From the NCBI GenBank assembly GCA_964540965.1, contig CAZIOT010000009.1, positions 38,642-102,641 on the forward strand: 64,000 nt of DNA. Reading direction: 5' to 3'. Both the position numbers and the translations under genes were made by a program. The notes below the pieces were generated by a model. It was not told the DNA's origin and ran no database searches. It saw only the letters and a list, made by a program, of their open reading frames with translations. How positions within the stretch are numbered: position 1 is the stretch's first letter; each line of letters opens with the position of its first letter. Below are positions 2,687 through 22,649 of the stretch, piece after piece. This DNA is from an uncultured Rubellimicrobium sp. (GTDB lineage: Bacteria; Pseudomonadota; Alphaproteobacteria; Rhodobacterales; Rhodobacteraceae).

Positions 2687-3762
2687 GCGCGCGCCCCGTC
2701 ACGGATGCGTTCGGCAAAGCGGATGGCGGCGGCGACGGCGCGGTAATGGCGGCGGTCGATTTCCTGTCCGACCGGGACTTCGGCATGGATGGCGCGGGCG
2801 GTGGGCGGGTCGGACTGGATCGGCACGCCGTTTTCGGCCGCGATCTCGCGGATGCGGGCGGCGATCTCGTCCATGCCCTTGGCGACGCAGACCGGCGCGC
2901 GGCCGCCGGCGCGGTCCCAGGCCAGCGCCACGGCGTAATGCGTCGGGTTGACGATCACCACCTCGGCCTCGACTACGGCCTTGCGCAGGGGGGCGGTGGC
3001 GATGGCGACCGCGCGGGCGCGGCGCTGCTGCTTCAGCGCGGGATCGCCCTCGCTTTCCTTCATCTCATCGATGACTTCCTGCCGGGTCATGCGGTTGCGG
3101 CGCCGGAACGAGGCCTGCTGCCACAGCACATCCGCCACCGCAAAGATGCAGGCGACGACGATGACGCGGGTGACAAGGCCGAGGAGGAGATTGCCGAGAA
3201 CCGTCGCCCCCGGCCCCGGCTCAAGCGACGCGCTCGCCACGATCTGGTCGAGGCGGGCAAGGGTATACTGCGCCAGAACGATGCCCAGCACGGTCAGCTT
3301 GGCGAGCGATTTCAGGAACTCGACCATGCCCTGCGTGCCGAATTTCTGCTTTGCCGTCGACAGGGGCGAGATGCGCGACAGTTTCGGCGCGAGCCGCGAC
3401 GGGGTGAAGGCCGGCGCGCCCTGCGCCAGCAGGGCAAGCAGCGCGAGGGCGGCCGGAATGCCGAACCACGGCGCCATTCCGGCCGCGACCTGCATCAGCC
3501 ACGGCCCCAGCACCGGCGCCGGCGACCCGGACAGCGCGGTTTCGGCCAGCCCGTCGGCGCGCGACAGCATGCTGGTCAGCACCGCGCCGACCGAGACGAG
3601 CGCGCCGCCGCCAAGGGTCATCGCGGCAAGGCCGAAGCCCAGATAGACGGCCGCCGTGGTGGCATCGGTCGAGAGCGGCCGGTCACCGCGCTTGCGCGCC
3701 TCGTCCAGCTTGTGTTCGGTCGCTGCATGGGATTTCTCGCCGCCCTCGGCGCTGTCGCTCAT
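2683..3762 (-). CDS. flhB: Flagellar export apparatus protein FlhB
   Basis: Starts at MSDSAEGGEKSHAATEHKLDEARKRG (typical FlhB N-terminus). Has four TM segments and the NPTH autocleavage motif (IVNPTHYAVAL). The 602-aa ORF in the track is an N-terminal over-extension through fliR. Confidence 0.9.
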   Translation of the reverse strand: MSDSAEGGEKSHAATEHKLDEARKRGDRPLSTDATTAAVYLGFGLAAMTLGGGALVSVGAVLTSMLSRADGLAETALSGSPAPVLGPWLMQVAAGMAPWFGIPAALALLALLAQGAPAFTPSRLAPKLSRISPLSTAKQKFGTQGMVEFLKSLAKLTVLGIVLAQYTLARLDQIVASASLEPGPGATVLGNLLLGLVTRVIVVACIFAVADVLWQQASFRRRNRMTRQEVIDEMKESEGDPALKQQRRARAVAIATAPLRKAVVEAEVVIVNPTHYAVALAWDRAGGRAPVCVAKGMDEIAARIREIAAENGVPIQSDPPTARAIHAEVPVGQEIDRRHYRAVAAAIRFAERIRDGARA

Positions 3763-4538: not shown

Positions 4539-6616
4539 GCGGCGACCACGCCGACCAGCGCGGGGCGGGCGTCGATGCCGATCTCCTCGAACGACAGCAC
4601 CGGGTTCGGGATGCCCTTGGCCGCCATCACCGTGCGCAGGAACCGCCGCCGCCGGCCCGAGGTGACCACCGCCGGATAGATGCCGTTTTCCGACACGCGC
4701 GCCAGACGGTCGGCGATCGCACCGGCAAGGCGGGTGAATTCGTCGGGCGGCAGCGCGACATCGGTGCCGCCGCGGTCGCCGGCGATCTGGTAGGACTGGA
4801 AGGTTTCCTCCCATTCCGGGGCCAGCTGCACCAGCGGGATGGTGCCGTCGGGGCGCCGAAGCTCTCCGACCAGCTGGAAACCCAGGCTGCGGCGGACATG
4901 TTCGGCGATGGCATCGGCGGCATTCGACACCTGCCGCCCCTCGGCGATGGATTCGAGGATCAGCGGCAGGTTGCGGATCGACACCCGTTCCTCGAGCAAC
5001 AGCCGCAAGACCGACAGCAGCAGGTCCACCGGCACCCGGTCGGGGATCAGTTCGTCAAGCATGCGGCGGTTGACCTCGGCCCGGCTCTTGTCGGTCAGGT
5101 TCACCATCTCGTCGAGCAGGCGGCGCAGCGCCTTGAGCGTGAGCAGCCGCGGAAAGTTGCGCTTGACCACCTCGAGCAGGTGGGTGGCCAGGACCTCGGC
5201 CGGCCAGACGGTGGTCAGGCCGGACAGGGCGGCCGAATCCTGATCGGCGGGGGAAATCCAGCGGGCGTTGGCGCCATAGACGGGTTCGCGCACGTCCTCG
5301 CCCGGAGGGGCGGCGCCGTGCCCCGAAAGCAGCGTCAAAAGACGGCCGGGGCGCAGGCTGTCGCGCGCCTGTTCGACGCCATGGATGCGGATGACATAGG
5401 TTGCGGGCGGCAGGCCGGGATTGTCGGTCAGCCGGATGTCGGGCAGGAGCAGGCCATAGGCGGTCGCCACATGGTTGCGCATCGAGGCGATCCGCGCATC
5501 GAGCCCGTTGGCGGGATCCAGGACCATGTCGACCAGATCGGGCGAGAACTCGACATGGATGTCGTCGAGATCGAGCAGGTCGCCCATCGAGGCGCGGGGC
5601 GGCGGCGCGATGGGGCCGGCGGCCACGGGCGGCCTGATCGCCGCCTGCCGCCGCCGTTCCGCGAACCAGGCCGAGGCGCCCAGAACCGCAGCGCCGCTGA
5701 CGAAGGGCAGGAAGGGCAGGCCCGGCACCACGGCAAAGACCAGCATCAGGAGCGCAACGGTGGCAAGCGCGGCGGGATGGCGCGAAAGCTGTCCGACAAG
5801 GGCCGCATCCGACGATCCGCTTTGCCCGCCGCGCGACAGCAAGAGCGCGGATCCGACCGAGATGATGACGGCGGGGATCTGGCTGGTAAGGCCGTCACCC
5901 ACCGTCAGGATTGCATAGGTTTCAAAGGCTTGCGTAACCGGCAAGCCATGCACGACCGTGCCGACGATCAGCCCGACCACCAGGTTCAGCCCGGTGATGA
6001 GCAGCCCGGCGACGGCATCTCCCTTGACGAATTTCGAGGCGCCGTCGAGCGAGCCGTAGAAGGTCGTCTCGGCCTGTTCGCGTTCGCGCCGCGCCCGCGC
6101 TTCGGCATGGTCGATGGCGCCCGAGGCGAGGTCGGCGTCGATGGCCAGCTGCTTGCCCGGCATGGCGTCCAGCGCGAAACGGGCCCCGACCTCGGCCATG
6201 CGCGCGGCGCCCTTGTTGATGACGACGAAGTTGACGATCAGCAGCACGCCGAACACCACGAGCCCGATCAGCACCGACCCGCCCATGACGAAGCTGGCAA
6301 AGCCCTCGATCACCTCGCCCGCGGCATGGGTGCCGGTATGGCCCTGGCTGATGATGAGCTTGGTCGAGGATACGTTCAGCGACAGCCGCAGCATCAGCGA
6401 GGCCAGAAGCACGGTCGGGAAGGACGAGAAATCGAGCGGCCGTTCGACGAACAGCGTGACGGTGAAGATCAGGATGGCCAGCGCGAAGGAGGCGGCAAGG
6501 CCGATGTCGAGCACCACCGCCGGCATCGGCAGGATCATCATCACGATCACCGCCATGAGGGCGAGCGCGAAGATGATCGTCGGCTGGAACAGGCTGCGGA
6601 GCGACAGGGTGGGCAT
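4535..6616 (-). CDS. flhA: Flagellar export apparatus protein FlhA
   Basis: FHIPEP-family sequence throughout (GARFALDAMPGKQLAIDADL, KFVKGDAVAGL). ATG at 6616 is preferred over the in-frame TTG at 6637. Confidence 0.95.
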   Translation of the reverse strand: MPTLSLRSLFQPTIIFALALMAVIVMMILPMPAVVLDIGLAASFALAILIFTVTLFVERPLDFSSFPTVLLASLMLRLSLNVSSTKLIISQGHTGTHAAGEVIEGFASFVMGGSVLIGLVVFGVLLIVNFVVINKGAARMAEVGARFALDAMPGKQLAIDADLASGAIDHAEARARREREQAETTFYGSLDGASKFVKGDAVAGLLITGLNLVVGLIVGTVVHGLPVTQAFETYAILTVGDGLTSQIPAVIISVGSALLLSRGGQSGSSDAALVGQLSRHPAALATVALLMLVFAVVPGLPFLPFVSGAAVLGASAWFAERRRQAAIRPPVAAGPIAPPPRASMGDLLDLDDIHVEFSPDLVDMVLDPANGLDARIASMRNHVATAYGLLLPDIRLTDNPGLPPATYVIRIHGVEQARDSLRPGRLLTLLSGHGAAPPGEDVREPVYGANARWISPADQDSAALSGLTTVWPAEVLATHLLEVVKRNFPRLLTLKALRRLLDEMVNLTDKSRAEVNRRMLDELIPDRVPVDLLLSVLRLLLEERVSIRNLPLILESIAEGRQVSNAADAIAEHVRRSLGFQLVGELRRPDGTIPLVQLAPEWEETFQSYQIAGDRGGTDVALPPDEFTRLAGAIADRLARVSENGIYPAVVTSGRRRRFLRTVMAAKGIPNPVLSFEEIGIDARPALVGVVAA

Positions 6617-14321: not shown

Positions 14322-15050
14322 ATGCGGCTTCTTGCCCTCGCCGCCCTGGCGCTTCTATTGCCCACGGCGGCTGCTGCGCAGGATTTTGACGCGCTGGGCC
14401 AGCTGGCCGGCGACGGCTCTCTGGCGGAACGGTCGATCCAGATCCTGCTGCTGGTTACAATTCTCAGCATCGTGCCGGGACTGGCCGTCACCATCACCTG
14501 CTTTCCCTTCGTCGTCACCGTGCTGTCGATCCTGCGGCAGGCCATCGGCCTGCAGCAATCGCCGCCGAACATGCTGATCGTCAGCCTCGCGTTGTTCCTG
14601 TCGTGGTTCGTGATGGAGCCGGTGCTGACCGCCGCCTGGACCGGGGGCGTTGAACCCTATGTCGAAGGCACCATGCCGCTCGAGGAGGCGGCGGGCCGCG
14701 CTGTCGAGCCATTCCGCGGCTTCATGGCGGCCCGCGTCGAGCCCGATACCTTTGCGGCGCTGGCTGAGCTGCGGCCCGGCCTTGACGCCGCGGTCACGCC
14801 CGAAGCGGCGCCGCTTTCGGTGCTGGTGCCCTCGTTCCTGCTTTCCGAGATCGAAAAGGCGTTCCGCATCGGTTTCCTCATCTACCTGCCGTTCCTCATC
14901 ATCGACCTCGTCGTCGCCGCGGTCCTGATGTCGATGGGCATGATGATGGTGCCGCCGGCCATCGTCTCTCTGCCGTTCAAGCTGGCCTTCTTCGTCGTCG
15001 CCGACGGCTGGAGCCTGATCGCCGCCAGTCTGGTGCGGAGTTACGGCTGA
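14322..15050 (+). CDS. fliP: Flagellar export apparatus protein FliP
   Basis: Signal peptide plus conserved FliP core (SIQILLLVTILSIVPGL..TCFPFVVTVLSILRQAIGLQQSPPN). Confidence 0.95.
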   Translation: MRLLALAALALLLPTAAAAQDFDALGQLAGDGSLAERSIQILLLVTILSIVPGLAVTITCFPFVVTVLSILRQAIGLQQSPPNMLIVSLALFLSWFVMEPVLTAAWTGGVEPYVEGTMPLEEAAGRAVEPFRGFMAARVEPDTFAALAELRPGLDAAVTPEAAPLSVLVPSFLLSEIEKAFRIGFLIYLPFLIIDLVVAAVLMSMGMMMVPPAIVSLPFKLAFFVVADGWSLIAASLVRSYG

Positions 15051-15649
15051 GATCGCGCGCCTGCCGCAGGGCCGGTCCTGTGTCGGTCCGGATTGAGCGA
15101 TGTCGCCGCACAGCCGGCGCGTCGGTCAGGTAGCCGAGGGTAGAGGCAGGACCGGGGCAGCGGGTAAGCTGAACCGGCCGCCGCACTTGTGGCGTCGTAA
15201 GCCCGTTGCACACACCTGCGATGTCCGACGAAAGCGCTGATGTGCATCAGCGATCTGCCCAGTCCGCTCACCGGAACCTCTATGCCCTGAGCGCGGCCGC
15301 CGGTTTGCAGCACTGCGGCCGGATGCGGGCCACCGCCCATGGTCGGGATTCGGTCGAAGGCTAACTCGAAAGCCGCCGCAAGTGGCACTGCGACCGCGTG
15401 GCACCGGCCGATTATCGCTTCGACTCGCCAGGCCGGTGGCGCGGTCAGGAGCGTCAGGTGCAACCCCTGGCTGCGAAAAAGCTCCGGCCCCGCCGGTCGT
15501 TTGCCACAGTGCCCCGCTCGCGGGGCAATCGCGGTGGCGGCAAGGAACCGTTTCGGGGAGCGGCAGGTGCGACGGCGGAAAGTCGGGTAGAAGCCGACTC
15601 GGTCCGCCGTTCATGACGCGTCCTTGTATCACGCGCCGCGCATCGCCGC

Positions 15650-16750
15650 TCAGCGCACGATGAATTCCGCATGAAGCGCCCCGGCGGCGCGGATGCTTTT
15701 CAGGATGTCGATCATGTCGGTCGGCGCCACGCCCAGTGCGTTCAGACCGGCGACCACCTCGGACAGGCTGGTCCCTTCGCCGACCTCGGCAAGGCCGCCC
15801 TGCTCGGTCGCGATGCCGACATTGCTGCGCGGCACCACCACCGTCTCGCCTTCGGAAAACGGGTTCGGCTGCACCACCAGCGGTGCTTCCTCGACGGTCA
15901 GGGTCAGGCCGCCCTGGCTGACGGCGACGCGGCTGATCCGCACGTCCTCGCCCATGACGATGGTGCCCGAGCGCTGGTCGACGACGACGCGGGCGCGGGT
16001 TTCCGGCTCGACCAGGATATTCTCGATCCGGCCCAGGGCGTGGGCGGGCGAGGGCATCCGCATGGCGCCGATGTCGAGTTCGACCGTGCCGGCATCCAGC
16101 ATGATGGCGACCTGACGGCCGAATTCTGCGTTGACGGCGCCTTCGATGCGGCCGGCGGTGGTGAAATCGGGGGTGCGCAGGGCCAGGCGGACATAGGACA
16201 GGTCCGACAGGGCAAAGGCGACCTCGCGTTCCACGGTGGCGCCGGCGGGGATCACCCCGGCGGTGGGCACGCCTTGGGTGACGGTGGCGGCTTCGCCTTC
16301 GGCGCTGACGCCGCCGGCGATGATCGTGCCCTGCGCCACGGCATAGATGTCGCCGTCCGCAGCGTTCAGCGGCGTCATGACCAGGGTGCCGCCAAGCAGG
16401 CTCGACGCGTCGCCGATGGCCGAGACCGTGACGTCGATCGGCGATCCGGCGCGGGCAAAGGGCGGCAGGGTAGCGGTGACCAGAACCGCGGCCACATTGC
16501 GCGGCCGGAACTGTTCGCCGGTGACGTTCACCCCCAGCCGTTCCAGGATATTGGCCATGATTTCTTCGGTGAACGGCGAATTCCGCAGGCCGTCGCCGGT
16601 CCCGTTCAGGCCGACGACAAGGCCATAACCGACCAGCTCGTTCGAGCGCACGCCGTCGAATTCGACCAGATCCTTGATCCTGACCGGGCTTGCCGTGACG
16701 GGCGCGGCAAAGGGCAGGGCGACCAGCGCGGCAAGAAGCAGCGCGCGCAT
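15650..16750 (-). CDS. flgI: Flagellar P-ring protein FlgI
   Basis: 366 aa, signal peptide and full-length FlgI similarity (RIKDL..VRSNELVGYGLVVGLNGTGD). Confidence 0.95.
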   Translation of the reverse strand: MRALLLAALVALPFAAPVTASPVRIKDLVEFDGVRSNELVGYGLVVGLNGTGDGLRNSPFTEEIMANILERLGVNVTGEQFRPRNVAAVLVTATLPPFARAGSPIDVTVSAIGDASSLLGGTLVMTPLNAADGDIYAVAQGTIIAGGVSAEGEAATVTQGVPTAGVIPAGATVEREVAFALSDLSYVRLALRTPDFTTAGRIEGAVNAEFGRQVAIMLDAGTVELDIGAMRMPSPAHALGRIENILVEPETRARVVVDQRSGTIVMGEDVRISRVAVSQGGLTLTVEEAPLVVQPNPFSEGETVVVPRSNVGIATEQGGLAEVGEGTSLSEVVAGLNALGVAPTDMIDILKSIRAAGALHAEFIVR

Positions 16751-22243: not shown

Positions 22244-22649
22244 TGCCGCCCTCCTTGCCCAGATAGTCGGCGTAGGACTTTTCCTCGACAATGAGCGAGC
22301 CGAGATGCAGGTTGATCGCCTTCTTTACCGCGGCGCGTTCGTCGTTGACCCGATAGACCGCGCGGGCAAGGCCGATGAAGGCCGGGCCGAAATCGCCGGC
22401 GCGTTCGCAATCGCGGATGTCGTCCTCGATCACCCAGAGGCGGGCGTTGATCCCGTAAAGCGCGTCCCACAGTTCCGAAAGCCGGTCCGAGGGCGGCAGG
22501 TGGGCGTCGGCGGTGGCCAGCAGCACTGCCTGTTCGTGACGGACATTGGCCAGTTTTGCGGCATCGGCGATCCGTTCGGCCTTGAGCCGCAGGATCGTCA
22601 GCTTGTCGATCAGCTCGCCGGGCGAGGTCGGCACCAGAATGTCAGTCAT
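22233..22649 (-). CDS. Small helical protein, DUF6165-like (recognised from memory, unverified)
   Basis: 138 aa starting MTDILVPTSPGELIDKLTILRLK. ATGA overlap with the upstream TPR-glycosyltransferase gene. Confidence 0.6.
   Translation of the reverse strand: MTDILVPTSPGELIDKLTILRLKAERIADAAKLANVRHEQAVLLATADAHLPPSDRLSELWDALYGINARLWVIEDDIRDCERAGDFGPAFIGLARAVYRVNDERAAVKKAINLHLGSLIVEEKSYADYLGKEGGNGR

Follow-up and report, generated by a model that had tools for sequence, protein, structure and literature searches.

Gene arrangement at the junction

The window, by which we mean the whole 64-kb stretch of DNA analysed here, is a segment of a Rhodobacterales chromosome with a G+C content of 68%, lying on contig C9 of a 3.66-Mb assembly. 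In its flagellar cluster a plus-strand operon, fliF-fliH-fliN-fliP, faces a minus-strand operon, motB-flgE-flgK-flgL-flgI. Here fliP, at 14322-15050 on the plus strand, runs toward flgI, at 15650-16750 on the minus strand, and 599 bp separate their stop codons. An earlier note on this DNA had singled out this gap between convergent genes, and its coordinates are correct:

15051-15649, unstranded: spacer from the stop of fliP (plus strand) to the stop of flgI (minus strand), with no coding signal, homology or family match, and not conserved

When genes are mapped by native codon usage, the other genes of the flagellar cluster overlap or stand at most 67 nt apart. A seeming 1072-nt hole at 2687-3758 is filled by a 602-aa ORF, and the map also shows a 354-nt hole at 22292-22645. 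The earlier statement that most junctions of the cluster are overlaps or gaps of less than 70 nt holds. Tight junctions mostly join genes on the same strand, whereas fliP and flgI mark a 3′-3′ meeting of two operons.

The window shares its gene order with the fla1-type cluster of the Rhodobacterales (Fla2 in Cereibacter sphaeroides), whose archetype is that of Phaeobacter inhibens DSM 17395 (PMC12363192). There too motB-flgE-flgK-flgL-flgI faces fliP-fliN-fliH-fliF, no gene is annotated between flgI (c35600) and fliP (c35610), which carry consecutive locus tags, and flgJ (c35890) is found elsewhere in the cluster. The published description of this cluster type assigns no role to the flgI/fliP spacer (PMC12363192).

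Coding potential of the spacer

The G+C content of the spacer (0.69) is flat over codon positions, at about 0.7 in all three, while both neighbouring genes display a strong coding pattern; a weak pattern resembling the flgI frame is seen at 15290-15500. Codon log-likelihoods, with 1063 long high-GC3 ORFs from this genome as the training set, range from -0.36 to -0.99 per codon for the ORFs of the gap, all of them negative, against +0.33 to +0.70 for fliN, fliP, flgI and the flgL-like gene. Both results bear out the view that the gap holds no convincing ORF. The longest closed ORF in the region of the gap (168 codons) was equalled or exceeded in 11% of dinucleotide shuffles (P = 0.11). All six-frame stop-to-stop pieces of at least 30 aa were listed, and the nine longest were searched, together with the start-codon ORFs, against Pfam and NCBIfam, with no match at E ≤ 1. 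Two long frames of the gap other than the one discussed below had no match in a protein collection of 5.8 billion clusters.

One ORF requires closer discussion, since the earlier note had described it as rich in rare codons and faintly reminiscent of rod-binding proteins:

15041-15463, minus strand: ORF140, a chance ORF in the flgI frame and not a gene, judged by codon score, rare codons and the lack of any true homologue

The ORF exists as described, with 140 codons (189 from stop to stop), and 29 of the 140 are rare, that is 20.7% compared with 1.6% in native genes. It scores -0.60 per codon, and translation would have to begin at a TTG that has no usable Shine-Dalgarno spacing and lies a short way past a hairpin that resembles a terminator and is followed by a U5 run. 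When ORF140 was compared by full HMMER with 1.84 billion representative proteins, just two matched, both of them eukaryotic ankyrin-repeat proteins (E = 2e-21 and 2e-9). In each, one 47-residue stretch of ORF140 aligns to some 14 repeats in turn, with scores of roughly 25-32 bits and identities of 30-36% per repeat. Single-repeat matches of this size fall far short of significance when the library comprises 2.4e11 residues, so that the two HMMER matches are an artefact of summing over repeats. We therefore reject ORF140 as an ankyrin-repeat protein: its score is the sum of some 14 chance matches, and no Pfam Ank domain is found at E ≤ 10. Measured against native coding genes, ORF140 fails in codon usage, in GC3 skew, in its start codon and ribosome-binding site, and in homologues.

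The rod-binding gene of the cluster

In a six-frame search of the whole genome at E ≤ 1, the rod-binding family (PF10135) matched at a single site, with 29.7 bits, on contig C9 (G000:C9:30973-31098). The site belongs to an intact gene of 87 aa (L001 1390-1653, plus strand) about 7.6 kb to the left of the window. It is flanked on one side by a divergent FliK-like ORF of 389 aa, and on the other by an ORF of 107 aa followed by the flagellin gene. Judged from its sequence, this is the real FlgJ/CheL-type gene of the cluster.

No frame of the gap matched PF10135, either in that search or in the Pfam scans, and ORF140 has no similarity to the rod-binding protein of its own genome (BLASTP E = 15). 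The supposed resemblance of ORF140 to rod-binding proteins is thus not borne out, and the idea of a decayed flgJ/cheL remnant is refuted, the sole PF10135 site of the genome being an intact gene elsewhere and the gap frames being devoid of family matches. A search for this domain that would admit a remnant had been proposed in the earlier note; the six-frame search finds nothing in the gap and leads instead to the intact gene. The likeness of the spacer to rod-binding genes (FlgJ N-terminal domain/CheL) is one of position only, downstream of flgI as in some alphaproteobacteria. It differs from them in having no sequence match, in a genome that possesses its own copy.

Hairpins and palindromes

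Four structures had been reported in the gap, and all four are present at the positions given. They are listed here with a terminator-like site and with the larger stem to which the fourth belongs:

15235-15252, unstranded: structure 1, an 8-2-8 palindrome, CGCTGATG-TG-CATCAGCG; a weak RNA hairpin (-9.5 kcal/mol, z = -1.75)
15397-15443, unstranded: structure 2, a perfect 8-bp stem, CACCGGCC/GGCCGGTG (15402-15409 with 15431-15438), around a 21-nt loop (z = -2.25 and -1.10)
15474-15496, minus strand: GC hairpin CCGGC-GGG-GCCGG (15496-15484) followed by AGCUUUUUCG; a terminator-like site for the flgI transcript
15510-15527, unstranded: structure 3, a 7-bp GC hairpin with the core GCCCCG-CTCG-CGGGGC (15511-15526); not individually significant
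15572-15610, minus strand: compound stem-loop of 39 nt (8 + 7 bp), 40-78 nt downstream of the flgI stop; candidate 3′-end hairpin

Structure 4, AGTCGG-GTAGAAG-CCGACT at 15581-15599, is the inner part of the compound stem-loop 15572-15610, the only individually significant structure in the gap. It folds at -24.2 kcal/mol (z = -4.52) on the minus strand and just as well on the opposite one (-25.7 kcal/mol, z = -4.01), and it is not followed by a U-run. The other hairpins have z scores of -0.9 to -2.3: the stem of structure 2 (13 bp at 85%) is near chance level, and the 61-nt windows that enclose the GC hairpin at 15510-15527 give z = -1.66 and -0.85.

Taken as a whole, the gap has folding z scores of -2.4 (plus strand) and -1.8 (minus strand). 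It contains four perfect 8-bp inverted repeats, compared with 0.83 ± 1.18 in dinucleotide shuffles (P ~0.03). The description of the gap as palindrome-rich is therefore right as to an excess, but this lies weakly above chance. A consensus scan for intrinsic terminators returned two sites, against 0.4 ± 0.5 in shuffles. The stem at 15496-15484 (minus strand), 5 bp of GC pairs and then AGCUUUUUCG, satisfies this consensus; on the plus strand it is preceded by A5 and followed by UCGUUUG, and could thus act in both directions.

Searches for RNA families, promoters and repeats

An Rfam scan of both strands, as suggested in the earlier note, gave noise only at E ≤ 10, the best match being mir-25 (E = 0.45), whose 22 bits fall short of the gathering score of 40.5. 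Neither a tRNA nor a tmRNA was found in the gap, and a consensus scan found no sigma-70-like promoter there. CtrA half-sites of the TTAA-N7-TTAA type are likewise lacking, as 15051-15649 contains no TTAA at all. In the 64-kb window TTAA occurs six times (7311, 10370, 11871, 20546, 21449 and 33367), where shuffles give about 20 ± 4.5. Five of the six lie in other intergenic gaps of the flagellar cluster, a distribution that fits CtrA-type half-sites marking the promoters of the cluster.

At 15383-15397 the sequence TGGCAC-TGCGA-CCGC is spaced like a sigma-54 box (GG-N10-GC), and a second TGGCAC occurs 16 nt beyond the first (within 15383-15404). This box was found post hoc and has a poor -12 element lacking the conserved T of TGC; we record it only as an observation. 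A 12-nt direct repeat, GCACTGCG(G/A)CCG, is present at 15310 and 15385. Box and repeat are probably both due to chance.

The spacer has no other copy in the genome, blastn returning the self-match and chance matches of up to 17 nt. Its palindromes are unique in the genome; that at 15235-15252 occurs exactly once, with two further copies that each have one mismatch. A 12-nt pair at 15056 and 15560 was considered as the terminal inverted repeats of a 516-bp insert and dismissed, about three such pairs being estimated by chance. A plasmid origin of the spacer was likewise rejected, as no plasmid match was found. GC-rich hairpins in a gap between convergent genes recall palindromic repeats of the REP/BIME or MITE type; the spacer differs from these in having no second genomic copy and no terminal inverted repeats beyond chance.

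Same-genus species and the closest relative

No sequence homologous to the spacer was found in 60 relatives, in 160 related loci or in the closest relative, and covariation therefore cannot exist in the data at hand. The 60 relatives, for which both a blastn search with the spacer and a protein-level search with ORF140 were negative, include three species of the same genus. An alignment with orthologous intervals, the comparison that had been recommended, accordingly reveals neither conservation nor a homologue in which covariation might be sought. Two of the observations which the earlier note had named as speaking against its own reading have thus been made, namely the lack of conservation in relatives and the intact rod-binding gene elsewhere.

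In the three same-genus species homology to the window ends exactly at the fliP stop and at the flgI stop, and the two genes lie on different contigs with unrelated neighbours. In one species fliP is followed by an EamA transporter gene, and in another an SDR and an RpiR gene come after flgI. The spacer was considered as a remnant of the genes that flank fliP or flgI in these species (EamA, periplasmic binding protein, SDR and RpiR) and showed no similarity to any of them; most of these genes are absent from the present genome. Matches by tblastx between the gap and the gaps or neighbourhoods of relatives were discarded as composition noise, being weak Arg/Pro/Gly-rich shadow frames; the best of them lay antisense to an RpiR gene. 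In the third same-genus species (L112 1-557, G003:C20) an IS66-family tnpA and the start of tnpB follow flgI directly, the element being cut off by the end of the contig.

The closest relative is a 3.1-kb metagenome contig (L114), with FlgI 97% and FliP 94% identical to those of the window. Its flanks are 79-95% identical in 150-nt windows up to both stops, with no gradient toward the gap, and we rejected the import of the junction by recombination on this ground. Between the stops lies a spacer of 519 bp and 69% G+C without a coding-like ORF, which aligns with the window spacer at the level of shuffled sequence (z = -0.05). The reverse complement does no better (z = +0.24), and an inversion was rejected accordingly. 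Four-fold degenerate sites are 62% identical in fliP and 87% identical in fliN, so that neutral drift alone should have left a detectable similarity between the spacers. From these sequences we infer that the spacer probably arose by non-homologous replacement, that is by turnover through insertion and deletion, drift beyond recognition being less likely. That the spacers of the two closest lineages are close in length (599 and 519 bp) and have the same G+C content could hint at a constraint on length or composition.

Variability of the junction in the Rhodobacterales

In a set of 160 related loci, drawn from genomes and metagenomes, flgI and fliP are commonly convergent neighbours. The length of the spacer in this cluster type differs by lineage, from 5 to about 1900 bp across relatives. 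Among the 43 spacers from the genome collection two pairs alone share any similarity, and none of the metagenome spacers matches that of the window. Spacers of 400-600 bp with a gene-like or higher G+C content and a flat codon-position profile recur in several genera.

Several of the longer junctions carry other DNA. From a reading of the translations, the 1.9-kb gap of L026 contains a fragment of an IS481-like integrase, and the gaps of about 1.6 kb in L090 and L069 hold an ORF of 511-544 aa that looks like a mannose-1-phosphate guanylyltransferase. The ORFs of these last two loci are 97% identical over a tblastx segment of 336 aa. In L077, L083, L172 and L191 (gaps of 1.28-1.42 kb) a predicted polytopic membrane protein of about 390-430 aa, likewise identified from the translations, occupies the junction and may have a role in flagellar function or in glycosylation; by eye, three of the four end in GVWPGLTALM..RIRLL/V. 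The Albidovulum-like loci L062, L070, L163 and L164 have spacers of 444-477 bp with 75-77% G+C. In L062 and L070 flgI has a G+C content of 68-69%, well below that of the spacers, and an open frame on the flgI strand spans the whole gap. The spacers of these four loci could be non-coding or could encode a small Ala/Gly/Pro-rich protein.

Folding of the junction varies as well. The first 150 nt after flgI have a mean z of -0.59 over 157 loci, compared with -3.5 in the window and +0.10 in L114, and we therefore rejected a hairpin after flgI as a general feature of the relatives. A strong hairpin at this place is thus not a conserved requirement. The z scores of the relatives' junction spacers scatter around -1.1, and given this scatter the hairpins of the window are either lineage-specific solutions or partly due to chance. 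In the Phaeovulum locus L098 a canonical terminator of A-tract, stem and T-tract (AAGAGACCGCCCCCTG / CAGGGGGCGGTTTTTT; 5068-5105), bidirectional in appearance, lies about 30 nt after flgI and illustrates what this junction requires, and its 582-bp spacer folds much more strongly than that of the window (z = -4.2 and -7.6).

Interpretation of the spacer

The spacer displays no coding signal, family membership or conservation, and homology is lost abruptly at both stops. We conclude that the 599 bp are probably a lineage-specific non-coding spacer at a 3′-3′ junction, within which the transcripts of two convergent flagellar operons would end. Accommodating these 3′ ends would likely be its sole function. 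The strong stem-loop at 15572-15610 may be the protective or terminating 3′ hairpin of the flgI operon mRNA, and the GC hairpin with its U5 run at 15484-15496, possibly bidirectional, is a second candidate transcript end. Together they would stop or stabilise both mRNAs and limit read-through into the opposite operon. We infer such a role, as terminators or stabilisers, for hairpins of which the strongest has no U-run and the one with a U-run has a stem of 5 bp. The leftover 430 bp or so may be filler from turnover, at a junction that would be a permissive site in the Rhodobacterales where DNA is inserted, lost and replaced, the spacer not being inherited as a conserved unit. Pure filler would not predict a G+C content equal to that of the genes, nor the mild excess of inverted repeats.

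The arrangement may be compared with 3′-3′ junctions served by intrinsic or bidirectional terminators. Like these, the window spacer lies between the ends of two converging operons, with a GC hairpin (15484-15496) preceded by A5 and followed by a U-rich stretch and with a strong stem-loop soon after the flgI stop, and the Phaeovulum relative has a textbook terminator at the same place. It differs in that 599 bp far exceeds what a terminator needs and that its strongest hairpin lacks a U-run.

Other readings of the same DNA deserve consideration. ORF140 would, in one of these, be a real gene, young or horizontally acquired, downstream of flgI, the FlgJ/CheL-like protein of the earlier note being a version of this. 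An open frame of 140 codons in the frame of flgI, at a place where alphaproteobacterial loci often carry cheL or flgJ, is what such a gene would occupy. Most of the tests run nevertheless contradict it: codon score and rare codons, the TTG start without usable Shine-Dalgarno spacing below a U5 hairpin, the empty PF10135 search with an intact rod-binding gene elsewhere to which ORF140 is not similar, and the lack of homologues, the ORF being absent even from L114. We regard a gene here as very improbable. The perfect 8-2-8 palindrome at 15235-15252 might instead be taken as an operator, and the spacer as a protein-binding regulatory region, an option already raised and for which we found no support. 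This is scarcely credible for a sequence that is unique in the genome apart from its two imperfect copies, that is kept in no relative, and that lies at a 3′-3′ junction where neither flanking gene needs a promoter, the more so as chance alone would produce about 0.8 perfect 8-bp inverted repeats in this much sequence. A decayed gene or mobile element other than flgJ/cheL, too eroded or too much of an orphan to be recognised, would agree with the cargo genes and IS elements in the junctions of other Rhodobacterales, with the separated operons and unrelated neighbours in the same-genus species and with the weak flgI-frame-like pattern at 15290-15500; the absence of homology to the spacer of L114 is also what insertion followed by imprecise loss would leave. 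The spacer has, however, no family match and no protein match in collections of billions of sequences, and no plasmid match, other genomic copy or convincing terminal repeats. Nor does it have the GC3 skew still to be expected of a gene inactivated only recently in a genome of 68% G+C, and such a remnant is unlikely.

A small RNA peculiar to this lineage, or a structured 3′UTR with a regulatory role, is likewise unlikely; examples would be an RNA that acts on the flagellar operons as antisense or sponge, or a processed piece of the flgI 3′UTR stabilised by 15572-15610. The folding of the whole gap, the one hairpin with z of about -4.5, the mild excess of inverted repeats and a G+C content as high as that of coding DNA would accord with such an RNA. 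An Rfam match, a promoter-like site and a CtrA half-site are all lacking in the gap, however, and the spacers of relatives fold at similar or stronger z without sharing sequence. With no homologue even at 97% FlgI identity, an RNA of this kind would have to be specific to the lineage. The earlier suggestion of a structured 3′UTR or sRNA thus survives in so far as the hairpins are plausible transcript ends, but finds no backing in RNA families, promoter-like sites or homologues; what is left of the 3′UTR reading is the ordinary one. A bolder version makes the flgI/fliP junction a dedicated turnover site, where close relatives have unrelated spacers of about 0.5 kb and equal G+C content, each lineage-specific spacer encoding its own sRNA, antisense or 3′UTR regulator. 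We think this highly unlikely; if true, it would amount to strain-specific tuning of the converging flagellar operons, anchored here by the stem-loop 15572-15610.

The reading as a lineage-specific non-coding spacer at the meeting of two operons is of small significance in itself. It removes a false lead, as the gap contains no decayed flgJ/cheL and the cluster has its true rod-binding gene, intact, at another place, and it places the long gap within the normal range of this junction in the Rhodobacterales. For annotators and comparative genomicists, the convergent flgI/fliP junction is a permissive site of fast turnover; with spacers unrelated even at 97% FlgI identity, and with IS elements and cargo genes landing there, sequence found at this junction should not be assumed to be flagellar.
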